NCBI GenBank assembly: GCA_007376385.1
Contig: VMGC01000001.1
Location: 1-64,000, forward strand
From: Parcubacteria group bacterium Gr01-1014_8
GTDB lineage: Bacteria > Patescibacteriota > Minisyncoccia > Phycocordibacterales > UBA2100
Direction of reading: 5' to 3'
Length of the DNA stretch: 64,000 nt
In this document: piece by piece, positions 3,225 through 45,757 of the stretch
How the letters are laid out: every line of letters starts with the position of its first letter
Numbering within the stretch: position 1 is the first letter of the stretch
The notes under the pieces: model-generated
The model's input: only the letters and a program-made list of their open reading frames with translations
Databases searched by the model: none
Told to the model about the DNA's origin: nothing
Made by a program: the position numbers and the translations under genes

Positions 3225-5162
3225 TTATATTCCCAAGAGCTTACTGAACGTTACGATAACCGCTGCGAGGAAACTAATTGGATTAAGACTTGATTGCGGC
3301 GGAGGCGGTGGAGGGTTTTCAGGAGGCGGTGGAGGAGGAGATTCACCTTGTGGTGGTGGAGGAGCAGACCCATCTCCCGGAGGCATTCCCTCGCCGGGCA
3401 TGCCGCTTGGAGGCGGACCTTGGAATTGGCCTTCATACATACCTGGAGGAGGCATCATATGTTCACCCGGCACTCCTTGTCCTCCCATATATTCACCTGG
3501 CGGCATTTCTGGATTGCCTTGCATGTACTTTTCCTGCATCTCGTTATATTTCTGCATGTTCATTTCGTATACACGACGCTCTTCTTCGCTCGCTCCGGGT
3601 CCCGGTGGTTGCGGCATCATCCTCTGGCCTTCTGGCCCACCTGGCCCCGTGCCCCAGAATCCTTGCTCTACGTGCATTCCGCATGATTCCGGATTCTCGC
3701 GGCATTCTTCCTGCATTTTTTTGCACTCTTCATCGGAGGAGCACAGGCGCTGTCCCGGAGGTATTTCAAATCCCCGCCGCTCTATTGCTCTATCCTGGCC
3801 AAAATCGCGGCACAAATCGGGATGTTCTTTACACACAGCCTCGCATTCCTCTCGCGATCTGCATCCGCCGGGGCCGCCCTGGCCGGGCACGCCCATCCCA
3901 GCTCGACCCTCAAAACCACCCGGCGGAAACGGTCCACCTTCCGGCCCACGCATCATCCCGTGCTCTTTTGCGAACTCCATGCACGTTTCCCGATTATCGG
4001 GATTCTCGCAGAACGTTCGACATTCTTCCCCCTTGCATCCGCCTGGACCCCCCATGTTCATAAATCCGCGGCTTCTTTCCGCATCTTCTTTGGACATAAA
4101 TCCATTTTCGACGGCGAACGCCACGCATTCCTCGTGGTGAGACTCATCTTCGCAGTACGTTCTACATTCTTCGCCCTTACATCCTCCGGGACCTGATTTT
4201 CCCATAAAGTTCTTGGCGCGCTCCGCTTCCTCGGCAGTCATAAACCCGTTCTCGACGGCAAATGCTATACACTCCTCTTGATGCGTCGGCTCTTCGCAGT
4301 ATGTTCTGCATGCCTCGCCAATGCATCCTCCCGGCCCGGGCTTTCCGGCAAATTTCTTCGCATGCTCGAATTCCTCATCTGACATCATGCCGTTTTCGTG
4401 AGCGAATGCGATGCACTCTTCCATGTGGCCCGGTTTATCGCAGTATGTTTTACATGCCTGACCCACACAACCTCCGGGGCCAGATTTGCCCGCGAATTTC
4501 TTCGCGCGTTCGGCTTCATCAGCACTCATGAATCCGTTTTCGACCGCGAATTGTATGCACTCTTCGGCATGAGCGGGATCCTCGCAGTAGCGTTTGCACT
4601 CCTCTCCGCGGCATCCGCCCGGTCCGGGCTTATTGCCCATTTTTCGCGCTCGCTCCGCGTCTTCTTTTGATATGAATCCGTTCTCTTCGGCAAACGTGAT
4701 GCACTCTTCGGCATGAGCGGGATCCTCGCAATACGTTTTACATTCGATACCGCGACATCCTCCCGGTCCCGGCTTGCCCGCAAGTTTGATGGCTCGCTCG
4801 GCGTCCTCTTCGTCTATGAGTCCGTTTTCTCTCGCGAAGGCTATGCATTCCTCTACGTGTTCCTCCGCTTCGCAATAGGTTTTGCACTCGCTTGGCCCGA
4901 TGCACCCTCCAGGCCCAGGCTTATCTCCGAGCTTACGCGCGATTTCGATATCCTCTTCGCTCATCAATCCGTGCTCTTCCGCGAAAAGAAAACACGCCTC
5001 GCGATTTTCAGGAACCTCGCAGAACGCTTGGCATGCACTCTTTGATTCGCAATTACCTAATTCTTCGATGGGGAAGGTTATAGTATCTTCCTGCGCGAAT
5101 GTTACCGCCGCAATCCCAAGAATTATCAACGGGAGGGCGACAAAGAGAATTTTCTTCGACAT
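3225..5162 (-). CDS. secreted cysteine-rich tandem-repeat protein (about 10 C-x5-C-x3-C-x8-C + His modules) with Met/Pro/Gly-rich low-complexity region and C-terminal hydrophobic segment
   Basis: 645-aa ORF with N-terminal signal peptide MSKKILFVALPLIILGIAAVTFAQE. Repeats of about 45 aa: GKPGPGGC-G-EC(K/R)TYCE-P-H-EECIAFA-ENGFMS-EDAERAKKFA. The rest is rich in MxxM / PPG motifs and ends PPPPPP-QSSLNPISFLAAVIVTFSKLLGI*. Confidence 0.8.
   Translation of the reverse strand: MSKKILFVALPLIILGIAAVTFAQEDTITFPIEELGNCESKSACQAFCEVPENREACFLFAEEHGLMSEEDIEIARKLGDKPGPGGCIGPSECKTYCEAEEHVEECIAFARENGLIDEEDAERAIKLAGKPGPGGCRGIECKTYCEDPAHAEECITFAEENGFISKEDAERARKMGNKPGPGGCRGEECKRYCEDPAHAEECIQFAVENGFMSADEAERAKKFAGKSGPGGCVGQACKTYCDKPGHMEECIAFAHENGMMSDEEFEHAKKFAGKPGPGGCIGEACRTYCEEPTHQEECIAFAVENGFMTAEEAERAKNFMGKSGPGGCKGEECRTYCEDESHHEECVAFAVENGFMSKEDAERSRGFMNMGGPGGCKGEECRTFCENPDNRETCMEFAKEHGMMRGPEGGPFPPGGFEGRAGMGVPGQGGPGGCRSREECEAVCKEHPDLCRDFGQDRAIERRGFEIPPGQRLCSSDEECKKMQEECRENPESCGMHVEQGFWGTGPGGPEGQRMMPQPPGPGASEEERRVYEMNMQKYNEMQEKYMQGNPEMPPGEYMGGQGVPGEHMMPPPGMYEGQFQGPPPSGMPGEGMPPGDGSAPPPPQGESPPPPPPENPPPPPPQSSLNPISFLAAVIVTFSKLLGI
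3917..4997. repeat. in-gene tandem repeat array, about 135-bp period, about 8 copies (encodes the Cys4 modules)
   Basis: Protein-level periodicity of about 45 aa with near-identical blocks. The antisense strand consequently carries long spurious ORFs (3133..4140, 3290..4063). Confidence 0.7.
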
Positions 5163-5163
5163 A

Positions 5164-5400
5164 TCAGTCGAAAGGATTCAGCTTCACATCCTCGTACGGA
5201 TTTGTTTTAACGTTTTCAAGCGGATTCGTTTCCACTTCGGCGTATGGATTCACCGCCGCTTGCGCCTCTTCCGTGTCATGAGCTTTCAGAGCGCCTTCCC
5301 ATCCGACATCGTAGCCGAAGTAGTATCCTGCTGCGCCTCCGAGGAGCGCTCCGACGACGAGTCCGGCGAGCGGGGCGACAAAGTTTGCGTGTAGTTGCAT
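5164..5400 (-). CDS. small membrane protein with glycine-zipper TM helix and NP(Y/L/F)xxV(E/K)T tandem motifs; co-operonic with the Cys-rich repeat protein
   Basis: 78 aa: PLAGLVVGALLGGAAGYYFG (TM, GxxxG), then NPYAEVETNPLENVKTNPYEDVKLNPFD. Its stop lies 2 nt from the start codon of the downstream gene on the same strand. Confidence 0.55.
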   Translation of the reverse strand: MQLHANFVAPLAGLVVGALLGGAAGYYFGYDVGWEGALKAHDTEEAQAAVNPYAEVETNPLENVKTNPYEDVKLNPFD

Positions 5401-5547
5401 AAAAAATATTGTAGCTTGTAAGTTGCCGTTAAGTATATACGTATTTCAATGGTTTTTTACGGACCCTGTGCATGGTGCAGGGCGTATCCCCTTGAGGCAT
5501 GATGTCGCGATACAATAAGGACATGAATGGCCGGGCGTTTGGCATCA

Positions 5548-5640
5548 GGGGTAAGCGGGTAAACGTAAGCGGTGTCAGGTAAACGGTAAACGAGTAAACG
5601 GGGTAAACGAACGGTGAGCGAACGGTGTCAGGTACCGTTT
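5548..5640. repeat. cluster of short direct repeats (GTAAACG x5, GTAAGCG x2, CGGTGTCAGGTA x2) in an intergenic region
   Basis: Read directly: ggtaagcgggtaaacgtaagcggtgtcaggtaaacggtaaacgagtaaacggggtaaacgaacggtgagcgaacggtgtcaggtaccg. It lies between the stop of gene 5672..7495 and the start of gene 5164..5400 (both minus strand). Confidence 0.6.
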
Positions 5641-5671
5641 TCCTGGATGTGTATGGGACACAGCTGTTACC

Positions 5672-7495
5672 CTACTGCCCCAGCAATTGGAGGATCGCTT
5701 TGAGTGCGGATTCGAGTGCGGTGAGGGCGGAGGCGAGTTGGGAATTCTTCGTGGCGGAGGCGGTGCCGCTGGTGACCGTGAACAGAAGCTCGGCGCTCGC
5801 AATTTCGGTATAGCTTGAGTTCAAGAGCCGCACCCAGAGTTTGTGGTTCCCCGGTGGGAGCGATGTGGGAAGCGTATAGGTATATGCTCCCGATGTCGCA
5901 AGGCCGGTCGCAAATGCATGCGATCCGCCGCTCTCCCAACGTATCCAGAGTGCGACTACGGCGCCGCTTGGAGCGTTTGCGCTTGTCCATGCGATGTTCA
6001 GCGTACCTCCGACTGCAACGCTCGTGCCTGTCTGCGGAGAGGTGATGGTGACGGTGGGCCCTGCAGTCGTACCGCTCGTGACCGTGATCGTTGCGGTGGC
6101 GCGGGTGGTTCCGTCAAGGACAAATTTTGCGGTATATGTTCCAGCGGTTGAGTAGATATGGTACTTTCCACCTCGACAATCGGTCAAATTAGAGCAATTC
6201 CCACTATCAACCTTTGTAGTTGAGCCATCACCAAAATCAAGAGTGCCGTTGAAGATGGAAGCTGGGCCAAACACGTAGACTAGCGCGTTTAGTGGTGCTA
6301 TGCCCGATGAGGGAGTTGCAGTGACAGTATAATTTTCCGTGCCAGTGCTCGTCGTACAGTTCGCATACTGATAGTTCGCGTCTCCTGAGAAAGTACCGTT
6401 AGTGCACGTTCGAGATTGCGATATTGATGAGCAGTTGGCATGCGTGCGAGATGAGTAGAAGGGGTGCGACAGGCCGTGTGGTTTCGTGATGCCGTCGAGT
6501 GTGCAGGAAGCTGCGCCTGGAGCACTTGGTACCCATGTACCGTTTTGACAGATGCCGGGGATGCAGTATGCGGTTCCTGTCGGCATTGGAATACAGGAAT
6601 GATGAGATCCATGGGGGTAGGTTTGACCGTTTGCGATGCATGAGTTGTTCGTATCGGTGGTACTTGCAGCTTGCACGATGCAACGTTCGTATTGGTAGCT
6701 TCCGGATAGAGTGCCGTTCGTGCACATGCGGCTTTCCGAGAGACACTGCTGGCCGCTTGATGCTGTTGCGGATTGGTAGGCGGTGATGGACTCGCCGTCT
6801 TTGACTTCTTTGTTGTTGAACCAGCAGGAGGCATTGGTGGTTGTTTGCGGAGTGACTGTGACAGTCGTATTGCACGTTGCGGCGCCTCCTTGTCCCCAGA
6901 AGGCGCCAGTATAAGTGGTGGTCTGCAGCGGAGAGATTGTTCGCGATCCGGAAGTATCCACCGACCCAATCGAGATAATAAGTCCCTGTGTCGCATTTGT
7001 GCTTGACCAGGTGAGCGTCGATGATTGACCGAGGGTGATCGACGAGGGGTTGGCGTTCAGGGTGCACGTGGGAGCTGGGGGAGGATTTGTGGGGGGCGGA
7101 GGTGGCGTAGTCGCGCCGCATGCCTGTTTGATCGCGGCTCTCGTCAAGGGGCCGACTCTGCCGGTTGTGGGGACGTCGTAGTCGCTTTGGAACTGCGTGA
7201 CGTAGTTCTTGGTTTTGTTCCCGAAGAAGCCGGACATCCAGAGGCCGAGCGGGTTATGGAAGTAGTCCATGAGGAAGTGCTGGAGCTGTGAGACCTGGTC
7301 GCCTGTTACGTGGCGGGCGCAGTCGCTATCCGCAATGTTCTCATCGCAGCTGCCATACCACATGTCTTGCGTGAGGGTGGGGCAAAATGGTGTGCCTCCC
7401 GTCTGCGCCGAGGCTACGGTTGGGAGGGAGGCGAGGGTGGGGACTAGGAGAGCGACGAGACCTAAGGAGATAAATAGCTTGCGCATGGGAGCCAT
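5672..7495 (-). CDS. large secreted cell-wall-binding protein: signal peptide, PG_binding_1-like domain, 4-Cys modules, PKD-type module, conserved C-terminal tail ...LTALESALKAILQLLGQ
   Basis: Signal peptide MRKLFISLGLVALLVPTLASLPTVASA. VSQLQHFL ... GFFGNKTKNYVTQFQ ... GRVGPLTRAAI matches the peptidoglycan-binding domain. LDFGDGSTTKVD ... GKYHIYSTAGTYTAKF is PKD-like. Repeated C ... HG ... C ... RxC(T/N)NGT(L/F)SG ... YQYxxC modules. Confidence 0.85.
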   Translation of the reverse strand: MAPMRKLFISLGLVALLVPTLASLPTVASAQTGGTPFCPTLTQDMWYGSCDENIADSDCARHVTGDQVSQLQHFLMDYFHNPLGLWMSGFFGNKTKNYVTQFQSDYDVPTTGRVGPLTRAAIKQACGATTPPPPPTNPPPAPTCTLNANPSSITLGQSSTLTWSSTNATQGLIISIGSVDTSGSRTISPLQTTTYTGAFWGQGGAATCNTTVTVTPQTTTNASCWFNNKEVKDGESITAYQSATASSGQQCLSESRMCTNGTLSGSYQYERCIVQAASTTDTNNSCIANGQTYPHGSHHSCIPMPTGTAYCIPGICQNGTWVPSAPGAASCTLDGITKPHGLSHPFYSSRTHANCSSISQSRTCTNGTFSGDANYQYANCTTSTGTENYTVTATPSSGIAPLNALVYVFGPASIFNGTLDFGDGSTTKVDSGNCSNLTDCRGGKYHIYSTAGTYTAKFVLDGTTRATATITVTSGTTAGPTVTITSPQTGTSVAVGGTLNIAWTSANAPSGAVVALWIRWESGGSHAFATGLATSGAYTYTLPTSLPPGNHKLWVRLLNSSYTEIASAELLFTVTSGTASATKNSQLASALTALESALKAILQLLGQ

Positions 7496-7583
7496 GTTAG
7501 CGGATGCATGTACATGATGACATGCGGTCGCTCTGCCAGTTGACGGATGAGGCCGTGGTGTGGATAGATATTCTCGGCATTAT

Positions 7584-7838
7584 CTACCGATATGCATCTT
7601 TCCTATCTCTAATATGTCGTACCAAAACAACATCATTTTTATGATCAAAAAGAATTCGATAGTCACCGACACGTTTTCGATATCCTTGAAACGGTGGTTT
7701 CAATTTCTTAATGCCTCTCTTTTGCAGCGGAAATTCCAAGAGTTCGCGCAAGCCTTCAGAAATACGATTGCGCATCGCTTGTGACAAGCGTAAGAAATCA
7801 TCCTGGGCTCGCTTATACAATATGACTTTAGAAGCCAT
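7584..7838 (-). CDS. type II toxin, RelE/ParE family
   Basis: 84 aa; C-terminal GDYRILFDHKNDVVLVRHIRDRKDAYR is typical of the RelE/ParE fold. Overlaps the upstream antitoxin gene by 11 nt. Confidence 0.8.
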   Translation of the reverse strand: MASKVILYKRAQDDFLRLSQAMRNRISEGLRELLEFPLQKRGIKKLKPPFQGYRKRVGDYRILFDHKNDVVLVRHIRDRKDAYR

Positions 7839-8067
7839 GTCGCTTTAGGAATTTCTCGAGTTCTACACCACGCTCACCTTTCTGCTTCTCGCGCAATTGC
7901 ATCAGTTCAAGTGCATCTTCTAGATCCTCGAGATCTTCTCTATTAATGATGGTCGCGACCGGAATGCCGCCCTTTTCTAGCGTGATTCGCTCCCCCTTAA
8001 GTACACGCCGGATGACGGAGCCGAGATTCACGCGAGCCTGTGTGATGGGCATAGTTGAAGTGGCCAT
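7828..8067 (-). CDS. type II antitoxin, Phd/YefM-like
   Basis: 79 aa; N-terminal ITQARVNLGSVIRRV is typical of the Phd/YefM antitoxin N-terminus. Acidic C-terminus. Translationally coupled to the RelE-like gene. Confidence 0.7.
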   Translation of the reverse strand: MATSTMPITQARVNLGSVIRRVLKGERITLEKGGIPVATIINREDLEDLEDALELMQLREKQKGERGVELEKFLKRHGF

Positions 8068-8074
8068 AGATTGA

Positions 8075-8115
8075 TCATGATTGATTAATACTCATCAATC
8101 ATATGTGATTGCAAC
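8075..8115. promoter_or_regulatory. putative TA-operon operator: inverted repeat TGATTGAT-N9-ATCAATCA with flanking GATTGAT direct repeats
   Basis: Read directly upstream (minus-strand sense) of the antitoxin start at 8067: gattgatcatgattgattaatactcatcaatcatatgtgattg. Confidence 0.45.
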
Positions 8116-8127
8116 ATAGTGTCAAGC

Positions 8128-8150
8128 ACACTGCTGCAAAAAGTTTTGCA
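8128..8150. promoter_or_regulatory. perfect palindrome TGCTGCAAAAA-G-TTTTTGCAGCA
   Basis: Read directly. Lies immediately 3' of the orphan tail stop at 8157 (minus strand). Shares the GCTGCA-A(n) core with the palindrome at 19112..19139. Confidence 0.5.
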
Positions 8151-8156
8151 GCAAAC

Positions 8157-8437
8157 CTACTGCCCCAACAATTGGAGGATGGATTGCAGGGTGGATTCGA
8201 GTGAGACCGGGGTGGGGCCCGTCGCAAGGCCAGAGCTGTCGAGGCGAGGAGGGTGAGAAGCGAATACGTGGAGCTTCGCAAGACCTTGAGAGGTTTTATT
8301 TGTGCGTACTCGCGAAAATAAAATCCTCAAGGTGTACTGATCCTGTAAGGATCGCGCAAAATCGTAGCAACGATTTATGCGTGACCGGTGAGGGCGCTGG
8401 CGAGTTGTGAACTGTTCGGAGTAAACGCACCAGTACC
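8157..8437 (-). pseudogene. displaced 3' remnant of gene 8438..9988: about 190-nt structured insertion followed by an orphan copy of the conserved tail (...SLESTLQSILQLLGQ*)
   Basis: 8157..8212 is nearly identical at DNA level to the 3' ends of 5672..7495 and 12169..14901. After the TAG at 8438 the same frame reads GTGAFTPNSSQLASALTGHA*, homologous to ...NSQLASALTALES... of the paralogues. The segment 8211..8398 in between has three hairpins. Confidence 0.55.
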
Positions 8438-9925
8438 CTACCCACCTACGCCGGTGACGGTGACAAGTACATACGTGTTCGTTGTGTCCGGAGATACTGG
8501 CGATGGTGCGAGGCTTGCATAGAGCTTGAAAGACTTGAGAGGCATGTCGGTCGGGACCGTGTAATTGAATGAACCTGACGTGGGGGCGGTTGCGGTCAGG
8601 ACATATTGATTGAGGCCGTCTGTCGACACCATGCTCAATCGGACGATTGACCCAGCCGGCGCGTTCTGCCCCTGCCACGAAATACCGATGACACTCCCGC
8701 GAGCGATGCTCGCGCCCGATTGCGGAGACGTGATGGTGATGGCTGGCGCGCTCTCAACGTCAGTGGCAGTGCAGCTCGCGTACTGGTACGAAGTTGCACC
8801 CGAGAGAACGCCGTTATTACACGTACGGTCGATGGAAAAGGTCTGGCACATCGACCAACTCGAGGCCACGCGCTGCTGGTAGAATTTGCGCGTTTGGCCG
8901 TGTGGCACAGTGACTCCATCAAGCGGGCATGAAGCATTTGCGGTCGGGCAGATTAGCTGATCTTGCGCACACGTCGCGCCCGGCTGCCAGTAGCAACCGA
9001 CAGGAGGATTAGCGTGCTCGCAGATCTGCCTCGGTGCGGTGACGGTGATTGTCGCAACGCCGAGATTGTCAACCTGAGAAGAAACTGTTCGTTTCAGTTT
9101 CGCGATGTAGGTTCCGACGGCTGCATACGTGTGCGAGACGGTGTAGACCTGCGGGCACGAGACGCCCTCCGGCGCGCCGCAGCTCAGGAGATGGAGCGGG
9201 CCGGTCGATCCGTCGCCGAAATCCACGTAAAAGGTCGAAGGCGCGGCGTCTCCGGGATTGACGGTAAATGTGACGGCAAGAGGTGCCTCACCGGATGTTG
9301 GAGAAGCACTGAACGAGGGGTTCGAACTGGTTGTAAGAGATGCAACCATAATCGTCGCGCTGCACGTCGCAACTGCTTGATGCCCCCAGAAGGTGCCGGT
9401 GTAGGTCGCGGTCTGTGTCGGATAGATCGTTTGAGAGCCATGAGGTGCGACCGTGCCAATGCCGCTGATCGTGCCATAGTTCGCGTTCGTGCTTGACCAG
9501 GTGAGGAGGGATGATAGGCCGAGGGTGATGGAGGCCGGCGAGACACTCATGGAGCACTGGGAGTTCGTCGGCGATGGGATTGGTACTGGGTACGAAGTTG
9601 CGGTGCTGCTGCAGACTCTCTGGATGGCTTCTCTGGTTTTGGGGCCCACTCTGCCATAGCCATTAGCGGCTTCGCTTCCCGAACAGATGCCCATCTCCCG
9701 GCACTGGAAGGATCGGACGGCTGCGCGGGTGAGATTGCCAAAGTAGCCGGTCGTGTTGCCTGTTGCGAGATCCCTCGTTTCGATGAGGAAGACTTGGAGT
9801 TCCCGGACATCAGAGCCGGACATGCCGATGGAGAGGTTGCGGTAGAGGTTGGGGCAGGTGGCGGCGGAGGTGAGAGCTGGCAGGAGGAGTGCCACGAGAC
9901 CGAGGGAGAGGAGGAGTTTCTGCAT
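8438..9925 (-). CDS. large secreted cell-wall-binding protein (signal peptide, PG_binding_1-like, PKD-type and 4-Cys modules); C-terminal tail truncated by TAG
   Basis: MQKLLLSLGLVALLLPALTSAAT signal peptide. GSDVRELQVFLIE ... GYFGNLTRAAVRSFQ is PG-binding-like. FYVDFGDGSTG ... HTYAAVGTYIAKL is PKD-like. SCPLDGVTVPHGQTRKFY ... CQTFSIDRTCNNGVLSGATSYQYASC is the recurring 4-Cys module. Start probably the Met at 9925 rather than 9988. Confidence 0.8.
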   Translation of the reverse strand: MQKLLLSLGLVALLLPALTSAATCPNLYRNLSIGMSGSDVRELQVFLIETRDLATGNTTGYFGNLTRAAVRSFQCREMGICSGSEAANGYGRVGPKTREAIQRVCSSTATSYPVPIPSPTNSQCSMSVSPASITLGLSSLLTWSSTNANYGTISGIGTVAPHGSQTIYPTQTATYTGTFWGHQAVATCSATIMVASLTTSSNPSFSASPTSGEAPLAVTFTVNPGDAAPSTFYVDFGDGSTGPLHLLSCGAPEGVSCPQVYTVSHTYAAVGTYIAKLKRTVSSQVDNLGVATITVTAPRQICEHANPPVGCYWQPGATCAQDQLICPTANASCPLDGVTVPHGQTRKFYQQRVASSWSMCQTFSIDRTCNNGVLSGATSYQYASCTATDVESAPAITITSPQSGASIARGSVIGISWQGQNAPAGSIVRLSMVSTDGLNQYVLTATAPTSGSFNYTVPTDMPLKSFKLYASLAPSPVSPDTTNTYVLVTVTGVGG

Positions 9926-9988
9926 GTATGGAATGATACGGGAAAAGTGCGGCGGGGTGGTGCGGGGAGTGGGGATAATGACACGCAA

Positions 9989-11110
9989 CTATTGCAAGAG
10001 AAGTGTTGGTGCTGATTTCCGCGTTACGATCGTCGGCAGTGTTCCAGGAAATTCCGAGAGCCATGCGCGTGAATATGGCGCTTCCCCGGCCCACTTGCAC
10101 TCAAACGCGCGCAACGTCCCCTGCGCGTCTTCGACAAGATCTATTTCCGCGCCCGTTTTCGTCCGCCAGTAATACAGTGTGGCGCGATTGTCTTGACGAT
10201 CCAGTTGCTTCACCCGCTCCGCGATGAAGAAATTCTCAAAAAGGTGGCCTTTGTCCGCGCGGTATTCGAGCGGTTTGAAGTCGTCAATGAGCGCGTTCCT
10301 GATGCCCGTGTCATAAAAATATATTTTGTCGAAGCGCGTGACTTCTTTGCGTTTGTTCTTTCCCAAGGGCGGCAGACGAAAAATGACGAACGCCTGCTCC
10401 AAGAGCCGCACATAACCCATCACAGTCTGCCGGCTCACTTCGAGCTGCTGTGCAAGTTCATTGTAGGAGACTTGCTGCCCAACCTGGAGCGCGAGAAGTT
10501 TCACTAGTTTTTCGACCACCATCGGCTTACGGATCGTCTCGATGCGCAGGACATCCCTAAGGAGATAGTCGCGCGCGAGCGAACGCGCCTCGTTCTCCGG
10601 CAGTGGTGCGGCAATGACCGCCGGATATGACCCAAAACGGATGCGCTCTTCCAGGAGTCGCGATGCCTCGATCGTGCCGATCGACGCCGCATATTCCGAG
10701 AATGAGATCGGATGGAGCGTAAACGATTCGTTCCGCCCGGTCAAAGGCTCGCTCACCGAATTTGATAATTCAAACGACGATAATCCAGTGGCAATGATGG
10801 TGAGATCCGGATAGGTGTCGTGCAGGAGTTTCAGCGAAAGGCCGATGTCTGGCACGCGTTGCGCCTCATCCAATACTACAAGCTGCCCGTCCCCGATGAA
10901 CGATTTCATTTCCGTCGAGGTCTTTCTCGTAAGCGCTTCCCGGATATCGGGTTCGTCGCAGTTCAGATACCTGCTTTTGCCCGTGTATCCTGCTAGAATC
11001 TCCTTAACGAGCGTTGTCTTCCCCACTTGTCGGGCACCATACAGGATGATAATTTTGGATTTGCCAAGGACTGACTCAATCTTCGGTTTTAGATACCTAT
11101 TTATATGCAT
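9989..11110 (-). CDS. AAA-family ATPase, DUF4143-type (Walker A GARQVGKTT)
   Basis: 373 aa. N-terminal P-loop LYGARQVGKTTL and a Walker B-like VVLDEAQ. Overall architecture resembles the widespread 'ATPase AAA + DUF4143' family that is often found in mobile or defence neighbourhoods. Confidence 0.7.
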   Translation of the reverse strand: MHINRYLKPKIESVLGKSKIIILYGARQVGKTTLVKEILAGYTGKSRYLNCDEPDIREALTRKTSTEMKSFIGDGQLVVLDEAQRVPDIGLSLKLLHDTYPDLTIIATGLSSFELSNSVSEPLTGRNESFTLHPISFSEYAASIGTIEASRLLEERIRFGSYPAVIAAPLPENEARSLARDYLLRDVLRIETIRKPMVVEKLVKLLALQVGQQVSYNELAQQLEVSRQTVMGYVRLLEQAFVIFRLPPLGKNKRKEVTRFDKIYFYDTGIRNALIDDFKPLEYRADKGHLFENFFIAERVKQLDRQDNRATLYYWRTKTGAEIDLVEDAQGTLRAFECKWAGEAPYSRAWLSEFPGTLPTIVTRKSAPTLLLQ

Positions 11111-11162
11111 ACTTGCTTTTATGACGCTATATTAGCAAGTATACTGGCGATTGTCAATACTT

Positions 11163-11459
11163 CTACTGCCCCAGCAATTTCAGGATGGATTGCAATGCCG
11201 ATTCGAGTGCGGTGAGGGAGTTGGCGAAAGGCTTCTGCCTCATTGTTCCTGACACTTTATTGGCGTGCAATACCCCGTGGAGTCGGTACTCCGACCCTCG
11301 GGGATGCACACCAAACCCGAATGGGCGGTGGCCCATTCCTATTCCAACACAAAATTCGCGGGAAACCACCGTGGCGTTTTTGCTCGAAGATGAGCGCCCA
11401 CCGGGCGCACTCATTTGAAAGGGCGGCGATTCATCCCCGCTAGCCTGGCTGCGGGGCAT
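11163..11459 (-). pseudogene. orphan copy of the conserved C-terminal tail (...FANSLTALESALQSILKLLGQ*) with unrelated upstream sequence
   Basis: Last 22 codons and about 70 nt match the 3' ends of 5672..7495 and 12169..14901. Upstream residues have no similarity to those genes. Sits between the AAA ATPase and the HepT/MntA pair. Confidence 0.5.
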
Positions 11460-11494
11460 TCTCGCCGTCCAACGAGTAAACGGGCAGCTCGTCT

Positions 11495-11845
11495 TTACTT
11501 TGAGACAGCGAGATACGCCGAAATCTTGTCTTGAACCATGGGCACGTCATCTTTGATGACCCGCCACACTTCTTTGAGTTTGAGACCGAAATATTGATGG
11601 ATGGCCACGTCGCGCAACCCAGCGATTTGTTTCCATGGCACATCGATCGCGGAGCGTGCAACCTGCGATACATTCTTCGCCAACTCGCCGATAACAATGA
11701 GTTGCATGATTATCGCACTCTGCGTCTTCGCATCTGCGTAGAATTCCTCCTCGGAGATGGCGCCTAAGAATTCGGTTACCTTTCCGCAGGCCTGCCGGGT
11801 CAGCTCAAGTGTAATCGAATCATCCTTCATAAATCGTCCGAGCAT
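11495..11845 (-). CDS. hepT: HepT-like toxin (DUF86/HEPN) of a HepT/MntA pair
   Basis: R-x4-H-x-Y motif in RDVAIHQYFGL. Pairs with the upstream minimal nucleotidyltransferase gene. The ORF extends to 11899, but the start probably lies at an internal Met so that overlap with mntA is small. Confidence 0.7.
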   Translation of the reverse strand: MLGRFMKDDSITLELTRQACGKVTEFLGAISEEEFYADAKTQSAIIMQLIVIGELAKNVSQVARSAIDVPWKQIAGLRDVAIHQYFGLKLKEVWRVIKDDVPMVQDKISAYLAVSK

Positions 11846-12113
11846 CTGAATAAATCGCCTCTCGCAGAAGCGGATGTACGGCATCCTCCGTAACGACATC
11901 GACGGGAAGCTGCAGTTCTTCGCTCAAATCCTGCTGCAGGCCGACATGGTCGAGAAGCGAAAACGGCGCGTCTCCATAATCGATGAGAACATCAACGTCG
12001 CTTCCTTCGCGATAATCGCCGCGAGCCCGCGAACCATACAGCTGGGCGCGTTTGATGTTCCATTTTTTGAAGATAGGCTTGGTTTTCTCTGCGAGCGCGC
12101 GTAGGTCATCCAT
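11820..12113 (-). CDS. mntA: minimal nucleotidyltransferase antitoxin (MntA-like)
   Basis: 97 aa; LYGSRARGDYREGSDVDVLID is the GS-x(9-10)-DxD nucleotidyltransferase signature. Confidence 0.75.
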   Translation of the reverse strand: MDDLRALAEKTKPIFKKWNIKRAQLYGSRARGDYREGSDVDVLIDYGDAPFSLLDHVGLQQDLSEELQLPVDVVTEDAVHPLLREAIYSDARTIYEG

Positions 12114-12168
12114 GCTGAAATCCTACCACAAGTGGCCGCTTGAGTGCACGCGCATTTTCTACTCCTTC

Positions 12169-14877
12169 CTACCGTCCCAAGAGTTGCAGGATCGCTTTGA
12201 GCGCAGATTCGAGTGCGGTGAGGGAGTTGGCGAGCTGTGTGTGGTTTTGTGCCGCTGCGGTCGGGGCAGTCACGGTGACCGTGATCGTCTCGTGAGGATC
12301 GTAGGTAAAGCCACCAAAAGTATGAACTGTATATGTGCCAGGGCTTGTGTAGATGTGATCCACCAGATAATACGGGTAGCTAGAATCTGTCCCAGGGTAC
12401 GGCGGAGAATATGGCGGCGTGCCATCACCGAAATCGATTGAGGGAAAGACACCCCCGCTATTTGGCGAGTGCGGAACAAGTAGATGTACTGTGAGGGGCG
12501 CGGATCCAGATGAAGGTACAGCGTTGAGACTATTCAGAACATCGCTGCAGTACGCATACCTATAAGCTGCATTGCCCGAGAGCGTGCCGTTTGTACAGGT
12601 TCGCGACAACGACGAACCAGTAGTGGAACAATTTCCCCAACGATTCGAGTAGAAGATGCGACTCTGACCATTTTGAATAGTAACTCCATCGAGGGTGCAC
12701 GAACTGCCATCGGGTGGTGGGGGCGGATACACTTTCACAATGTAATTCTGCACGCTCCAGCCGTCGATCGTGCTGTTGTCCCAGTCGATCTTCCACCACG
12801 TGAAGCCGTTCGCGCTCTGCGGGCCGTCAATGATGGTTCCCTCTGCCCCTGTCGGCTGTGCGTCGAGGATGGCGCCGCTTGTGGAGGGTGTCGCACGGAC
12901 GTTCACGGCGTCGGTCGCCCGCACCCGATCGCCGATTGCGAATGGGGGTGGGGTGGTGCCGCCAGTTACGTTGACTGCCGCAGTCGCCGTCTCATACCCG
13001 CCGTTCGCTAGGAGTTTGGCGGTGTAGCTTCCGGGAGTGGTATACGTGTGCACGATAGTGCCCGAACAGGGGCCGGTACCGGTACACGATTTCTCCGCTG
13101 CGGTGATCTGATGAATGGGCGTACCGTCACCAAAATTGATACGGAACGCTAAGAGCGTCTGGGTAACGGTAAATGCAAGATTGGTAGCGAGAGGCGCGGG
13201 ACCGGAACTGGGAGTTGCGGTGAGGGTGTTTTGGTTGGTGTGAGGGGCGGTGATGGCTACCGTTGCGCGGACGACGCCGCCAATGAGGAGACGAACAGTG
13301 TATGTTCCGGAGGCGGTATATGCATGACCCCCCGTCGCATACCCGGCGCACATCCCATTGTTGTTGCAGTTTTGGGGCGTGACGGTTCCGTACGGCGATC
13401 CGTCGCCCCAGTCGACCTGGCCCTGGAAAATATCGTTTGGTCCTTTCACGCCAAGCCCGAAGCTGTAAGGCAGTCCGGCAGCGGGAGTGGGGATGAGGGA
13501 ATATGTGTTCGTATTCGACACTTTCGCGATGTAATTCTGCACGCTCCAGCCGTCGATCGGGCTGTTGTCCCAATTTATCTTCCACCAGGTGTAGCTGTTC
13601 GCGCTTTGCGGGCCGTCAATGATGGTTCCCTCCGCTCCTGTCGGTTGTGCGCCGAGGATGGTGCCGCTCGTCGAGGGTGTCGCACGGACGTTGACGGCAT
13701 CGGTCGCCCGCACCCTGTCGCCGACTGCGAATGGGGGTGGAGTGCCGGCGGCGGTGATCGTAAAAGGGATGTTCGTTTGGGCAAGCACTTGATAATTAGG
13801 CATCCGCAACGTGGCATAAATGCCTCCATTGCCTGCTAATAAATACAACTCCGTAGGAGTCCAAACATATGAGCCACTCAGCGGCTGAATTCCCCCGATA
13901 CCATACATCGGGGCACCGTAGGGACCCCACGAAAGGATGACCTGGGCGTTTGCGGGTGCATTCTGCGATTGCCAGGAAATGGTGACGGGATTATTTACTT
14001 GGACCGATGATCCCGACGGTGGCGCGGTGATGGTGATGGAGGGAGAAGTGTTCCCCTCTGGCCATGTGCAGGCTGCGTATTGGTACGAGGTCGCGCCCGA
14101 GAGGACGCCATTATTACACGTGCGGTCGATGGAATTCGTCTGGCATTGGGAGGAAGAAACTTCGTCGCGGTGCAGATAGAATTTACGCGTAGCTCCGTGC
14201 GCCACCGTGACCCCATCGAGCGTACAGGAGGTGCCTGACGTAAGCGGCGAAGTGACAGATATTGAGACTGAAGCCACAGTGGCACCAGCTGTCGTCCGCA
14301 GCGAGGCCGTGTAGGTCCCTGCCGACGCGTAGGTGTGGGGAAATTCGCACCCTCCTCCCGTGTAGCACTCGGGATGCAAATCTTGGGACGCGCCGTCGCC
14401 AAAATAGACTCGATACGTGTTGCCGGTTCCGGAGAACGTGAACGTCACCGCGAGGGGGACAACGCCGGATGTCGGCGAGGCAGAAAACGTCGGAGTCTGT
14501 AACGTTTGCGTATGACACGTAAACCGCGGGCCGATGGTGTAGGGGCCGAGCGGGTTTGAGGCGTTGTTGCTGTGCACCCACCAGGCATACTCCTGGTTCG
14601 GCGAAATGGGGAGGGTGATCGTTGTTTCTCCGCGAGTACTGACGGCATGGACAAAATCCGCGTTCCCCGGAATATTAACGCGAACGCTGTAGTAGGTGGC
14701 GTTCGCGGCCGGCGACCACGAGAGCGTCACCTCATCGCCCGCAGCGTTGCAAATGGCCTGAAGATTTTGCGGCGCGGCGAGTGCATCTGGCCCCCAGGGG
14801 GTTGATGACAGCTGCGCGGACGCGAGCGCGGGAGCGAGAACGAGTGCGAAGCCGAATGCCGCGAATAGTTTCTTCAT
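12169..14877 (-). CDS. large secreted protein: FN3-like, several PKD-type modules, two SH3b domains, 4-Cys modules, conserved C-terminal tail ...LTALESALKAILQLLGR
   Basis: Signal peptide MKKLFAAFGFALVLAPALASA. Near-identical internal duplicates GDRVRATDAVNVRATPSTSG(T/A)IL(G/D)AQPTGAEGTIIDGPQSAN ... WWKI(N/D)WDNS are SH3b-like. YRVYFGDGASQ ... HTYASAGTYTASL, VDWGDGSPYG, INFGDGTPI ... HTYTTPGSYTAKL and SIDFGDGTPP are PKD signatures. Confidence 0.85.
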   Translation of the reverse strand: MKKLFAAFGFALVLAPALASAQLSSTPWGPDALAAPQNLQAICNAAGDEVTLSWSPAANATYYSVRVNIPGNADFVHAVSTRGETTITLPISPNQEYAWWVHSNNASNPLGPYTIGPRFTCHTQTLQTPTFSASPTSGVVPLAVTFTFSGTGNTYRVYFGDGASQDLHPECYTGGGCEFPHTYASAGTYTASLRTTAGATVASVSISVTSPLTSGTSCTLDGVTVAHGATRKFYLHRDEVSSSQCQTNSIDRTCNNGVLSGATSYQYAACTWPEGNTSPSITITAPPSGSSVQVNNPVTISWQSQNAPANAQVILSWGPYGAPMYGIGGIQPLSGSYVWTPTELYLLAGNGGIYATLRMPNYQVLAQTNIPFTITAAGTPPPFAVGDRVRATDAVNVRATPSTSGTILGAQPTGAEGTIIDGPQSANSYTWWKINWDNSPIDGWSVQNYIAKVSNTNTYSLIPTPAAGLPYSFGLGVKGPNDIFQGQVDWGDGSPYGTVTPQNCNNNGMCAGYATGGHAYTASGTYTVRLLIGGVVRATVAITAPHTNQNTLTATPSSGPAPLATNLAFTVTQTLLAFRINFGDGTPIHQITAAEKSCTGTGPCSGTIVHTYTTPGSYTAKLLANGGYETATAAVNVTGGTTPPPFAIGDRVRATDAVNVRATPSTSGAILDAQPTGAEGTIIDGPQSANGFTWWKIDWDNSTIDGWSVQNYIVKVYPPPPPDGSSCTLDGVTIQNGQSRIFYSNRWGNCSTTGSSLSRTCTNGTLSGNAAYRYAYCSDVLNSLNAVPSSGSAPLTVHLLVPHSPNSGGVFPSIDFGDGTPPYSPPYPGTDSSYPYYLVDHIYTSPGTYTVHTFGGFTYDPHETITVTVTAPTAAAQNHTQLANSLTALESALKAILQLLGR

Positions 14878-14969
14878 GCGCGAGATGTTACGAATATGCA
14901 TACATCATGCCATGCGGCCGGCGCTTCGCGCCGGCCGCTTTGCACACCCATGTGGATAGCGAAATTGCG

Positions 14970-15362
14970 TCACGAATGCATCCGATCTGCTACCGAATGC
15001 AACACAAGGGCGTATTCTTCACGAACGCGAACCAGAAGTTTGCTCGCATATTCTTCCCCATAATCGTGTACCATCCTGTTCCGGTCATCGATGATCGCAA
15101 GCAGCACTTCCCCCTCATCCTCGCTCACGAGAGATGCAGCAGACGCCGAGCGTACGACGTCTTTGGGTAACGCCACGTCAGCACCGCGTTCCGCCAAGAT
15201 GCGCTGCAATACTTTCGGCATCAACTCGGCCGCGAGTTCAAATCGCAAAAGGACTGCGTCGCGCTCGGCGTTTTCGGGCAAAGGTTTAAGCGCAAGCGCT
15301 TTTTCCAAAGCCTCTACCGCTTTTCCGAAGCGATGTGTTGTCCTCTTCGCTATGGTATCCAT
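14970..15362 (-). CDS. HEPN-domain protein (nucleotidyltransferase substrate-binding, HI0074-like) - toxin of a HEPN/MNT pair
   Basis: 130 aa, all-helical. R-x4-H motif in DDRNRMVHDY. Overlaps the upstream MNT gene by 13 nt. Confidence 0.65.
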   Translation of the reverse strand: MDTIAKRTTHRFGKAVEALEKALALKPLPENAERDAVLLRFELAAELMPKVLQRILAERGADVALPKDVVRSASAASLVSEDEGEVLLAIIDDRNRMVHDYGEEYASKLLVRVREEYALVLHSVADRMHS

Positions 15363-15679
15363 ACGACGGATTCGTTCTGCAAGACAAAATCACGGAAATC
15401 GGCGTCTGCGGCATCGAGATCGACAACGTCCACTTTGTACGGGATGGGTGAATCATAGAAACGGTCACGCAATTCCGAGAGTTTTTTTTGCGACCTCCCG
15501 TTCCCCACGACGCCGAGATCAATGTCATGAAATTTTTCTTTCCGAACCGAAGAGCCGAAGAGGAAATAACGGTTTGAACCTTGCGGGTCAAACTTCTTAA
15601 CGATGTCTCTCACTTGATTTTCATACCGCAGCTTCGTCATGTGGAAATCATAGCACAACGCGCAGGGCTTCAGGATCAA
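15350..15679 (-). CDS. minimal nucleotidyltransferase (HI0073-like) - antitoxin of a HEPN/MNT pair
   Basis: 109 aa; YFLFGSSVRKEKFHDIDLGVV carries the G(S/G) ... DxD nucleotidyltransferase motif. Confidence 0.7.
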   Translation of the reverse strand: MILKPCALCYDFHMTKLRYENQVRDIVKKFDPQGSNRYFLFGSSVRKEKFHDIDLGVVGNGRSQKKLSELRDRFYDSPIPYKVDVVDLDAADADFRDFVLQNESVVWIP

Positions 15680-15747: not shown

Positions 15748-18700
15748 TCACCCGCCGCACTTGAAAGCTGTGCCGGAGGTATAGGGCCCAAGCACAGCAG
15801 GATCAAAGTTGGCGTGCACCCACCAATTGTACGTCTTCCCCGCGACGACATTCGTCGAGTACGTGGCGACGAGGATGCCGTTGTCTTCGCGATAGAACAC
15901 CGATGAACCCGGCTCGATGAGGCGGACGTGGTAGTGGATGGCGCCGGGCATCGCATCCCACGTGAGCGTCACGTGCGTGCTGTCGGTGCAGGTCGCTTGC
16001 AAATTGGTCGGCGCCACCGCCGGTGCGACGCAGGTAAACGCGGTGCCCATCGTGTAGTCGCCGAGCGTTCCTACTGCCGGATTCGCGTGCACCCACCACG
16101 AGTAGTTCGTCCCCGGCACGACGGATGCGGTGAAGGTCGTCCCCTGGAACCACTCCTCGATCTTGTGGAATATTTGCGATCCCACTTGGATGATGCGGAT
16201 CCCGTAATTCGCGGCACCCGGAGACGCATTCCAGGAGAGCGTGACTTCATCCCCTGCGGGCTTGCACGACGCTTGGAGGCCCGTCGGCGCGGGGACGCTG
16301 ATAACCGCGCAGTCTTTGTATTGGTACTGGTTGTCTCCGCTCCAGATGCCCTTGGAGCACGTCCGCACCTGCGAAACAGCCGTGCAGGTATTCGGCGCTT
16401 GCACGGTTTTTGCGGAATAGAAGGTGTACGATTCGCCGTTCTGCTTCGTGACACCGTCAAGCGTGCATGACTGGTCCACCGGCGCAGAAAGTTGTTTCGA
16501 CATGCGACGTATCTCTTTGTACTGGAAATCGTATGGCGTGCCTCCCTTCTGGCATCCGGTCGTCACATAGATGGTGCCGTCATAATAGTACGCTTCGGGC
16601 ACGTGGTTTGCGGCGCAGCCGGACTCGGCGTCAACGTATCCTTGCGTCGTCCAGTGGATGCCATCCGGCGAGGTCGCCTCGGTTATCTTGCGCGCCTGCC
16701 ACGGATCCTGGGTCGCCTGGTCATACTGCTGTGGAGGGTCGCCGTAGGCGTAGTAGGTGCTGTTTACCTTGATGACATCAGGGTTCGGGAATGCGTACAT
16801 CTGCGGGTTGTCGCCGACGTTCACGCCCGTGAAGGTGCCGGCAAGGAACGCCGATTGGGTCGGGCTTGCAAGCGGCAGCTCCGCGTATCCCATCACGAGG
16901 CCTCCCGTTGTGTTCCAATAGTCGAACCACATCCTGAATTTCCCATTCTCGTACATCAAGGATGGACGGTGATACATGTTGCCGTTCAGGTTGTCCTGTT
17001 TCCCCGCTTCGGTCGGCGACACGAAGTACGGCTTCGTCGCCTTCTGCCAGTGGATGCCGTCGGTCGAGACCGCTGCCATGATCCCCTGGAAATCCTGGTC
17101 GGTGTCTCCCGCCTGGCCGGATGCTTTCCCATCGAGGTCGTTTCCGGTTGCGCTGTAGACCATGTAGTAATCGGCGCCGATTTTCACGACCGACGGGTCG
17201 CCGTTGTGTACCCCATCGTAGTACGTGCTTCCAGCGGTGATGACGGGCTTCCAGAGCGATGCCGTCATCGTCGTATCGTATTGCGGCGTGCCGCCTGAAT
17301 CCCCCTTATACACCTGCCACGAGAGGCCGTTTGCGGAACGCGCATAGAATATCGCATCGCACGGCGTGCCGGGCGTGAAGCCGCCGGGGTTATTGCACGT
17401 GTACGCCGCCCATCCCATAAACCACATCTTGTACGGGTAGCTGGCGTCGGAAACGTCACGGATGATGTGCCCATTGTACAGGTTGAGGAAATTACTCAAG
17501 AGGGTCGTCCCCCGATTCCACTGTGAGGTGACGTTGTTGAGCGTGATGCCGGATGGTATTGACGCCGATTGCACCGAGACTATCGCCGAGCACTGCGCCG
17601 TCCCTCCCGCACCCGTCACGCTTGCCGTGTATGTCTTCGTCGCCGTGATGTTGGTGATCTGCTTTGTTCCATTCACGGGTACCGCGCCGATGCCTTGGTC
17701 GATCGTTGCGCTCGTCGCATTTTGGGATGAGAGGGTGAGTACGGACGAGCCGCCCGGTTGCACGGATTCCGGATTTGCCTTAAGCGTGCACGTCGGCGCT
17801 TGCGTCTGTACTTGCTCACACGATGCGTACTGGTATAGCGAAGAGCCGCTAAGAGTCCCATCCGTACACGTGCGCGATTGCGATACGACACTGCACGTAT
17901 TCGGCGCTTGCACGGTTTTTGCAGAATAGAAGGTGCGCGACTGGCCATGGAGGACGGTAACGCCGTCGAGCGTGCACGAGTCGGTGCCGCTCGTTATCTT
18001 CTGGAGATAGTTTTCAGCAGACCAGCCTGTCACTCCCGGCAAGAAGCCACTCCCATCCCACTTCACCTGCCACCAAGTGTAGCCGTCGGCGCTCTGCGGG
18101 CCGTTCGTAACGACACCCGTTGTGCCTCTCAGTGCCTTGCCGACGATTGACGCTCCGAGGGAGGGCGCCTCGCGGACGTTGAGCGTGTCGGTTGCCTTGA
18201 CCTTGTCACCAATAGAGAATTTTCCCGCGCTCTGCACGCTGCAGCTCGGGTATTGGTAGCTGCCGGAGAGCGTGCCGTTGTTGCAGGTGCGCGTTTGCGA
18301 AACGCATTGTCCTCCGGCGGGAACTGATGATGATTGATATGCGGTGACGGTTCCTCCGTGCAAAATAGTTTGGCCGTTGAACGTGCATGACTGATTCCCC
18401 GGCGTCTGCACCGCAACCGTCGCAGAGCACGCCGCGCTCCCTCCCGCGCCCGTCACTGTCGCTGTGTATGTTTTGGTCGTTGTGATGTTGGTGACGTTCG
18501 TCGTGCCGTTCACCGCGACGGCGCCGACGCCTTGGTCTATGGTTGCGCTCGTCGCGTTTTGCGAGGTGAGCGTCAAGATCGAACTGCCGCCAGGTTGTAC
18601 AGACTCCGGATTTGCCTTCAGTGTACACGAAGGAGCCGTACCGGTTGAGATTTTCTGGAGATAGTCCTCCACGGACCAGCCGGTCGCTCCTGGCAAGAAA

Positions 18701-23156: not shown

Positions 23157-23202
23157 GTTACGAAAGACTACAATGATGCACACAGTATAGCGCACATTAT
23201 TC

Positions 23203-44190: not shown

Positions 44191-44360
44191 ACGAGAGAAA
44201 GAGTGATAAATAATGCCGTAATCATAACAGTTCTGTATGTGTAGACGCGCGTGGGGACATTCCCTTACGGACGGCGTAGAGCGAGCAAAATACAACAAAG
44301 AACTTTTGTATGTTCGAGCCAAGGAGTCCGAACCCTGTCATGTAACGCAGGATTACAGGG

Positions 44361-45737: not shown

Positions 45738-45757
45738 GCATACAGTATGACTTCTCA

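Follow-up and report, generated by a model that had tools for sequence, protein, structure and literature searches.

Integron attC cassettes and the pdif modules of Acinetobacter plasmids are small modules, often encoding toxin-antitoxin (TA) systems, that are parted by a recurring short sequence. Rickettsia palindromic elements, repetitive extragenic palindromic (REP/REPIN) sequences, and repeats of the type of miniature inverted-repeat transposable elements (MITEs) are short, non-coding hairpin repeats present in multiple copies, which may insert into coding sequence and at gene 3' ends. Homology-facilitated illegitimate recombination, which occurs in natural transformation, combines one short homologous anchor with one illegitimate joint. 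We analyzed a 64-kb stretch of DNA from Parcubacteria group bacterium Gr01-1014_8 (the window), in which paralogous surface-protein genes, designated p1, p2, and p3, share a short 3' end encoding their extreme C terminus (the tail). Copies of the tail stand beside TA and ATPase genes, and one of them is split by a structured repeat, designated the GTCAC element. All genes discussed are located on the minus strand.

The locus resembles integrons and pdif modules by the association of TA modules with a recurring sequence, and the order of the modules differs between the window and loci L005, L008, and L140 (L-numbers designate the contigs or loci that were compared; L005 and L008 belong to the Kaiserbacteria metagenome-assembled genome (MAG) JACRFK01). 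In contrast to these systems, folding is not predicted for the tail DNA, neither an IntI- nor an Xer-type gene adjoins it, and the recurring sequence is translated in the adjacent gene. An integron was ruled out, since the tail DNA folds no better than shuffled sequences and the ORFs scanned in the 64-kb window contained no recombinase domain. The tails may also be compared to the attL and attR sites left by integrative elements that insert at gene 3' ends, classically those of tRNA genes, and bring along a replacement end: a cassette lies between two direct copies of a 3' end, the core of these copies is identical, their distal parts have diverged, and the gene is intact. The tails differ from such sites by the lack of an integrase in the window, by a cargo consisting of a TA pair or one ATPase gene, by variable boundaries, and by the nature of the target, which is a protein-coding tail common to paralogues. 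We regard the tail as probably, if far from certainly, a conserved helix at the C terminus, encoded by DNA that provides short dispersed homology for recombination and insertions.

Tail copies and cassettes in the window

Tails ending in a TAG stop codon were located at positions 5672 (p1), 12169 (p2), 11163 (an orphan copy), and 8157 (the distal piece of the p3 tail). The p1 gene (5672..7486) encodes a PG_binding_1/Big_7 surface protein of 604 residues (P0001) with an intact tail at 5672-5743. The p2 gene (12169..14877) encodes a secreted PKD/SH3 surface protein of 902 residues (P0027) with an intact tail at 12169..12240 (TQLANSLTALESALKAILQLLGR followed by TAG). Comparison of p1 and p2 by blastn detected similarity in the tail only (82.6% over 69 nt), and the tail homology ended exactly at the TAG stop codon in every copy. 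All coordinates given in a preliminary description of this locus were correct. The same description held the 3' ends to be almost identical; they are similar, but only at 83%, with 7 synonymous differences over 16 identical residues. The 17-mer CTCACCGCACTCGAATC occurs exactly three times in the window, for 0.23 occurrences expected. A repeat finder, a fuzzy peptide search, and a tail hidden Markov model (HMM) applied to the six-frame translation of the window returned one and the same set of copies and no others.

The third paralogue, p3 (8438..9925), encodes a PG_binding_1/PKD surface protein of 495 residues and ends at a TAG codon (8438-8440) located ahead of the linker and tail. Its tail is in two pieces, which matched exactly complementary halves of the HMM (positions 2-14 at 8378-8437 and 15-28 at 8160-8201). 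The proximal half (SSQLASALT-) is located at 8386..8413 and the distal half, encoding (A)LESTLQSILQLLGQ followed by TAG, at 8157..8203. In silico deletion of 8204-8385 joined the two halves into a perfect tail, SQLASALTALESTLQSILQLLGQ followed by a stop codon, containing the same 19-mer as the other copies. Because the pieces at 8386-8413 and 8157-8203 together make up the tail of p3 itself, the window contains four tails (p1, p2, the orphan at 11163, and the split p3 tail) and not the five first counted. The displacement of the distal half by about 190 nt was correctly perceived, and its cause is an inserted repeat element; the TAG codon, which had been placed directly before SQLASALTG, is 9 codons ahead of it. 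The insert comprises 182-185 nt and folds strongly (z = -5.4). The tail is cut between CTCACCG and CACTCGAATC, and the last CAC (8201-8203) may be counted with the element or with the tail.

Along the coding strand, the genes come in the order p4, an MntA/HepT-like pair, p2, MntA, HepT, a hairpin-rich non-coding stretch of about 260 nt, the orphan tail, a promoter-like site, an AAA_14/DUF4143 ATPase, p3, the split p3 tail, a second promoter-like site, Phd/ParE, and p1. The cassette downstream from p2 encodes an MntA-type nucleotidyltransferase, the antitoxin (11820..12113; Pfam NTP_transf_2 and Polbeta), and a HepT-type toxin (11495..11899; Pfam HepT-like, 6.9e-22). The ATPase gene (9989..11110; Pfam) encodes 373 residues. 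The cassette upstream from p1 (7584..8067) encodes a Phd antitoxin (7828-8067; Pfam PhdYeFM_antitox) and a ParE/RelE-type toxin (7584-7838; Pfam ParE_toxin). Both Phd/ParE and MntA/HepT consist of adjacent small genes with paired Pfam domains, as type II TA systems do. A Pfam scan of the open reading frames (ORFs) of at least 150 codons in the 64-kb window revealed no integrase, transposase, resolvase, or reverse transcriptase domain.

The orphan at 11163..11235, which was recovered both by the tail HMM and by peptide search, encodes an intact tail variant, (F)ANSLTALESALQSILKLLGQ followed by TAG, and a functional gene of L133 ends in almost the same peptide. Starting from TCGCC, the p2 tail and the orphan are identical over 28 of 28 nt (TCGCCAACTCCCTCACCGCACTCGAATC) and then over 24 of 37. 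All 13 mismatches are located beyond position 28, a distribution expected by chance with a probability of 2e-4. The orphan is a chimera of tails because its proximal part is closest to p2 (0.91) and its distal part closest to p3 (0.87). Mosaic pairs were also found in L133, in L140, and in the Kaiserbacteria MAG, and within-genome pairs of the latter two displayed identities of 0.93 in the distal part versus 0.55-0.76 in the proximal part. The patches of identity and the mosaic copies are in keeping with the suggested homogenization by gene conversion; the many synonymous differences between the distal codons of p1 and p2 are not.

Two further features adjoin the orphan pieces. The hairpin-rich block upstream from the orphan (11354..11464) is conserved, with 82% identity to positions 1132-1288 of the unrelated locus L119 and compensatory changes, and its counterpart in L119 adjoins a GTCAC element. 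A search of Rfam provided no match for this second hairpin block. The two best promoter-like sites of the 5400-12400 region directly follow the two orphan pieces, one at 11129..11157 (TTGACA-17-TAATAT) between the orphan tail and the ATPase gene and the other at 8098..8125 (TTGACA-16-TATGAT) after the distal p3 tail, ahead of Phd. The site ahead of the ATPase gene is kept in L005, in which the ATPase is 84% identical.

The arrangement is not an assembly artefact, since it is identical in independent assemblies of the same population from the European Nucleotide Archive (ENA; ERZ27284378, loci L002 and L004) and from Logan (SRR8863434, loci L001, L003, and L136). All junctions were 100% identical with the exception of 129 extra nucleotides at 11354|11355 in the ENA assembly, which fall inside the hairpin block (L004 13414-13571 in that assembly). 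An apparent alternative junction at the start of L002 was rejected, its 40 odd bases being part of the 129-nt indel. Alternative cassette arrangements among strains were not found in look-ups of p1, p2, the ATPase, and MntA, the indel being the sole strain difference. The 134-residue translation of HepT had no record in the sequence look-up.

The tail as a C-terminal protein module

Twenty-three of the 120 best homologues of p1 end in the tail motif, one of these homologues belonging to a named Kaiserbacteria genome. When 21 tails were combined into a profile, it matched 69 of 1.84 billion representative proteins (E ≤ 0.001). The match ended at the last residue in 55 proteins and 1, 2, or 5 residues before it in 11, 1, and 2 proteins, respectively. 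Thus, the motif is rare, lineage-specific, and strictly C-terminal, as the preliminary description had supposed for its position. The proteins bearing the tail begin with Sec-type signal peptides, as judged from their sequences.

The consensus consists of a low-complexity linker followed by a helix of about 22 residues, (S/T)QLAxxLxALExALxxILxLL(G)(Q/K/R). In a single heptad register, all six a/d positions are occupied by L or I, and the hydrophobic moment is 0.42. AlphaFold2 modeled the last 150 residues of p1 as an Ig-like sandwich, a low-confidence linker, and one helix (residues 125-148, pLDDT of about 80). With hydrophobic a/d positions over at least three heptads and a predicted helical structure, the tail would be of the coiled-coil or leucine-zipper-like type. 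These results agree with the earlier prediction of an amphipathic helix devoid of a transmembrane (TM) segment. Indeed, neither a hydrophobic run of TM length nor a basic cluster was found in the tail, the longest uncharged run being of 5-8 residues and the last six residues containing 0-1 K/R. No Pfam or NCBIfam model, including those of sorting domains, matched the tail. The module is carried by a subset of surface proteins with peptidoglycan (PG)-binding, PKD, and Ig domains.

C-terminal sorting signals (LPXTG/sortase, PEP-CTERM/exosortase, GlyGly-CTERM, MYXO-CTERM, and the C-terminal domain (CTD) of the type IX secretion system (T9SS)) are, like the tail, short modules at the extreme C terminus of Sec-secreted multi-domain surface proteins, and they share with it restriction to particular lineages and presence on a subset of paralogues. 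Unlike these signals, the tail displays neither the combination of a signature motif, a TM helix, and a basic cluster nor a β-sandwich CTD, is predicted to form a soluble leucine-zipper-like helix, and has no identified processing enzyme. A classical signal of the sortase or exosortase type was rejected on this basis. Our guess, which stems from the heptad pattern, is that the tail may serve oligomerization or docking at the cell surface.

Selection acts on the tail peptide, because synonymous differences separate p1 from p2 and because other genomes use different codons for identical tail residues. The DNA itself displayed no hairpin potential, as three tail DNAs folded no better than shuffled sequences (z = +0.61 to +0.76).

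Other C-terminal motifs were encountered among the proteins compared. Homologues of p1 lacking the tail share the motif ..P(V/I/M)(F/W)x E(L/I/V/F)$ at their extreme C terminus (P0013, P0026, P0065, P0074, P0075, P0091, P0094, P0097, P0099, P0119, and P0120). A third motif, ..KHRAVRH$, ends many matches, and the two of these with an organism name are from Acidobacteria. Both motifs are possibly uncharacterized C-terminal signals. Tail-bearing genes were also found on a contig with autotransporter and outer membrane β-barrel protein genes (L132, from ENA ERZ1700618) and on a contig binned as Zixiibacteriota (L007); these contexts could result from mis-binning, a chimeric contig, or horizontal transfer.

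Tails in other genomes and the GTCAC element

The comparison with other genomes was made on a small sample ascertained through the tails themselves (about 25 tails from about 10 genomes); a narrower, back-translated tail alignment yielded only 7 genome loci. The tail finding is real and extends beyond Gr01-1014_8. Single cassettes located between two tails were found in three genomes, the cassette being MntA/HepT in the window, HicBA in L137, and an AAA_14 ATPase in L140. L137 contains a tail-bearing gene, HicB, HicA, 13 nt, and an orphan linker and tail. L140 contains a PG-binding gene with a stop codon, an out-of-frame tail, the ATPase gene, a second linker and tail, and MntA/HepT-like genes. 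The two linker-and-tail copies of L140 (1489-1583 and 2859-2953) are 87% identical, with mismatches clustered mid-way. On a fourth contig, ERZ27297570, an ORF consisting of an orphan tail separates a ParE cassette from a HicA cassette. In L008, an orphan distal tail is followed by Phd and a 99-codon ORF, and a split tail by an ATPase gene; in L006, a tail is followed by an MntA homologue. By our tally, a TA or AAA_14 gene directly follows about 11 of the approximately 25 tails examined. The arrays of L133 and L134 contain adjacent tail-bearing genes and no orphans.

The upstream limits of the orphans differ: TCGCC in the window, the linker TTSAAQ in L137, IRVDGP in L140, and LEA in L008. Two orphans have decayed, L005_o952 ending in LLEL* and L008_o6001 lacking a stop codon. 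A segment ..PFD(S/T)AQGK.. precedes two orphan tails (L137 1030-1056; P0150 and P0153). In L137, it adds 27 nt that the intact gene lacks, and it resembles another short repeat family. The preliminary description had seen the conserved 3' segment as a hotspot for insertion or recombination, comparable to attC or a target site. The hotspot is supported by the mobile repeat that splits the tail here and twice elsewhere and by the tail-cassette-tail order in three genomes. The analogy with attC failed on the absence of hairpin potential, the absence of an integrase or transposase in the 64 kb, and the variable orphan boundaries.

The repeat inserted in p3 recurs in tails of the Kaiserbacteria MAG. 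In L005 (900-959), the junctions are identical to those of p3 (..CTCACCG|GTCAC.. and ..CAC|TCGAG..); in L008 (5917-5965), the element is located 12 nt further upstream than in p3 and L005. A profile of the element detected one copy in the 64-kb window, in the p3 tail, and one copy each in L005 and L008, all of them in tails. No tail was found in 649 kb of element-bearing metagenome loci. The GTCAC element is a general one, for which the tails provide a lineage-specific landing place. A stop codon just before the linker and tail was present in three genes from three genomes, p3, L008 geneB (~5889-5891), and L140 P0035 (1465-1467), two of them in frame with the tail and one (L140) out of frame. 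Either a nonsense mutation that removed the tail or an exchange of the gene body could have produced these codons.

The pattern GTCACRCATAA-N12-16-TTTGCGCGA, which fits the copies of p3, L005, and L008, matched at least 120 metagenome stretches (including loci L012-L131) and, among viral contigs, none. The consensus comprises GTCACRCATAA, a hairpin, TTTGCGCGACCCCGCCTCG, a hairpin, and a further part. The first part of the element is a long hairpin, the inner stem of which varies; the second is a conserved unit (CCCC-xyz-CTC, hairpin, and C-rc(xyz)); and the third is variable. In the copy inserted in the p3 tail (8204..8385), HP1 (8351-8385) is followed by a nested extra module (~8254-8351), HP2, and HP3. 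Of 61 distinct inner stems, 52 pair over at least 5 bp, versus 1.6% of shuffled sequences, and involve 31 different arm sequences. An alignment of 43 copies contained 67 cells with compensatory double changes, a number reached by none of 500 shuffles, with far lower values in slid controls. One pair, A.C on the strand as written in 20 of the 43 copies, reads G.U on the opposite strand; the structure is therefore selected on the strand ...GTCGCGCAAA..TTATGYGTGAC. Rfam provided no match for the window or 12 loci at the gathering score and none for canonical copies of the element at E ≤ 10. LOOT RNA (RF03000, 68.9 bits) was detected at 4926-5043 of L047, a contig that also contains a GTCAC element.

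Among the 100 copies with enough flanking sequence, 47 are accompanied by a tRNA gene that is encoded on the opposite strand and lies no more than 250 nt from the HP2 side, versus about 3% expected by chance. The element is therefore normally located just 3' of tRNA genes, in the same orientation. The median distance is 95 nt and 14 tRNA amino-acid types are represented. About one third of the copies abut a direct copy of the tRNA 3' piece (from the T-loop to the end, 17-33 nt) and are flanked opposite to it by an inverted copy. For 35% of about 110 copies, the 3' end of the neighboring gene was found as a long direct repeat of 10-40 nt. The same architecture was found behind genes ending in ..KVELK*, which we take to be rplL, and the outer stem (RCGCATAA...) may bear a likeness to Xer/dif arms. 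Two or three copies are present in 15 of 119 element loci.

The many copies, the compensatory hairpin, and the extragenic location are those of a REP-like structured repeat. Like Rickettsia palindromic elements and REP- or MITE-type repeats, the element is short, non-coding, multi-copy, and hairpin-forming, and lands in coding sequence and at gene 3' ends. It differs by the lack of terminal inverted repeats (TIRs) or a fixed target-site duplication (TSD), by its marked bias toward the 3' flank of tRNA genes, and by the copies of tRNA 3' ends. Classification as a MITE was rejected, since no common TIR or fixed TSD was found in the flanks of about 110 copies. With regard to tRNA-targeting integrative elements, a direct repeat of the tRNA 3' end accompanies about one third of the copies; the insert, however, is only about 100-200 nt long. 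A role as an island boundary or attachment site was rejected, since the neighboring ORFs look like housekeeping genes by sequence alone, no Pfam scan having been run on them. A literature search for MITEs of the candidate phyla radiation (CPR), for sorting signals, and for the core sequence of the element retrieved nothing relevant. The GTCAC repeat is uncatalogued, without an Rfam family, and is the most unexpected item of the analysis.

Proposed recombination at tails and its alternatives

Starting from the motif, its position and distribution, the inserted repeat, the mosaic identity of the copies, and the recurring tail-cassette-tail order, all of which were observed, we infer that homologous or homology-facilitated recombination, maybe after DNA uptake, has been at work rather than a dedicated recombinase. 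The bearers of the tail module form a small set, specific to the lineage, of Sec-secreted multi-domain surface proteins of Parcubacteria and Kaiserbacteria. Its copies would behave as short dispersed repeats, because they are the sole stretch of DNA common to the divergent paralogues; they would swap patches and mark places of array rearrangement. Cassettes and new gene bodies would join at tails, the former 3' end being left behind as an orphan. Two events can be discerned in the window. In one, a copy of the GTCAC repeat cut the p3 tail, p3 now stopping at the TAG codon before the linker. In the other, the orphan at 11163 would be the displaced former 3' end of a tail-bearing gene, now parted from p2 by MntA/HepT and the hairpin repeats, with the recombination joint inside the 28-nt identical core. 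Homology-facilitated illegitimate recombination would produce a proximal tract of full identity followed by foreign distal sequence, would duplicate the target, and would leave the outer boundaries variable; its operation here is conjectural, the only gene speaking for competence being that of ComEC (31541-33058 of the window).

Several points weigh against recombination through dispersed homology. The starting base is the same in three orphans (CACTCGA...), and two repeat copies have a junction in common, a hint of greater site specificity than would follow from plain homologous recombination. No presence/absence polymorphism of any cassette was seen in the population, only the 129-nt indel. 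A tract of 28 identical nucleotides is at the lower limit for RecA-dependent exchange. The window covers 64 kb of a 408-kb contig, so that a recombinase could be encoded elsewhere, and the comparison is limited to about 25 tails from about 10 genomes in a sample found through tails. The function ascribed to the helix is a guess drawn from the heptad pattern.

The shared start base also speaks for the alternative of a dedicated site-specific system, in which the tail DNA would be an att- or attC-like site, the recombinase would be encoded elsewhere, and cassettes would be captured together with a replacement distal tail. Cassettes lie between direct repeats of the tail whose proximal core is identical and whose distal part has diverged, as expected for attL and attR, the orphans retain the tail and no more of the gene, and the GTCAC repeat reveals that duplication of 3' ends at tRNA genes is common in these organisms. 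We nevertheless hold such a system to be unlikely: genes for an integrase, transposase, or resolvase are lacking in the 64 kb, the tail DNA shows no tendency to form hairpins, the orphans begin at different points upstream (TCGCC, TTSAAQ, IRVDGP, or LEA), and the tail varies synonymously between genomes. Plain gene decay is a somewhat stronger contender, if still a doubtful one. The orphans would then be the last remnants of paralogues deleted from a fast-evolving tandem array, and TA or ATPase genes would be common occupants that protect their own flanks. The lesions in two orphans, the stop codons before the linker and tail in p3, L008 geneB, and L140 P0035, and the many arrays without orphans (L133 and L134) fit this explanation, and any tail, intact or orphan, by definition precedes the next gene. 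However, random deletion ends would not spare the tail alone, within a few codons, every time. In addition, the sharp step in identity between p2 and the orphan, from 100% to 65%, and the chimeric nature of the orphan need tail-tail recombination, and the orphan at 11163 is intact, with nearly the same peptide as a functional tail of L133.

That same intact orphan, which has an ATG codon 26 codons before its stop codon, might be taken for a gene still in use. Orphan and post-stop tails would then produce free small peptides (MRQKPFANSL...LLGQ, 11163-11240) or isoforms generated by read-through or frameshifting at the three genes that stop just ahead of the linker and tail. We consider this very improbable, since the p3 tail is broken by 182 nt containing a TAA codon, the L140 tail is in another frame, two orphans have no canonical end, no convincing ribosome-binding site could be read from the sequence, and the promoter-like sites are located after the orphans and not before them. 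Finally, gene 3' ends that recur in a CPR genome together with orphan copies recall a diversity-generating retroelement, in which the orphans would be template repeats and the gene ends variable repeats. The resemblance stops at this general picture, and the probability of such an element is close to nil. It was ruled out within the window, since the Pfam scan detected no reverse transcriptase and the 13 positions at which p2 and the orphan differ include all four bases and not adenines only; moreover, the tail is the most conserved part of the protein, not the most variable.

Recombination through short dispersed homology, which we prefer, may be extended into a bolder joint proposal that we put forward tentatively and consider rather doubtful. 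The tail would be a landing pad, and the TA/ATPase modules bounded by tails would move within a genome between tail-bearing surface genes, and between strains by transformation, swapping the C-terminal helix. Independently of this, the GTCAC repeat would represent a new class of mobile structured elements that home to tRNA 3' ends, or occasionally to those of protein-coding genes, and duplicate the ends so targeted.

Additional features were noted elsewhere in the window. A second MntA/HepT-like pair with paired Pfam domains (14970..15679) separates p2 from p4 (15748-19068), a surface-protein paralogue without a tail. Other tail-less PG_binding_1/PKD paralogues are located at 20169-23219, 37928-39466, 42514-44322, and 44361-45761. 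Within p2, an internal direct repeat (12729-12966 and 13518-13755; 238 nt, 88% identity) corresponds to the two SH3_3 regions. The two copies are far closer than the paralogues are to each other and thus stem from a duplication or conversion within the gene that took place recently. In two genomes, intact or orphan tails are followed by a small gene whose product, of about 78-79 residues, has no family match (5164-5400 in the window and 1113-1352 in L137); the L137 protein appears hydrophobic by eye. Beyond it, 3225-5162 encodes a secreted Cys-rich protein of 645 residues composed of tandem 48-residue (144-nt) repeats (..GPGGC.G.EC..YCE.P.H.EECI.FA.ENGF.S.E.AERA..), for which the Pfam matches were spurious only.

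The GTCAC repeat is abundant in groundwater metagenomes and merits a description of its own. The tail-cassette-tail pattern suggests how selfish TA and ATPase genes colonize, and perhaps stabilize, surface-protein arrays, which here sit in genomes with almost no classical mobile-element genes. If the tail were indeed a landing pad, it would define a cassette system operating via a translated 3' gene end shared by paralogues, and not via attC and an integrase. CPR bacteria (Patescibacteria) live attached to other cells, and little is known of how their surface proteins are held, displayed, and varied. The tail helix of their PG-binding, PKD, and Ig surface proteins provides a testable candidate for a docking or oligomerization module.

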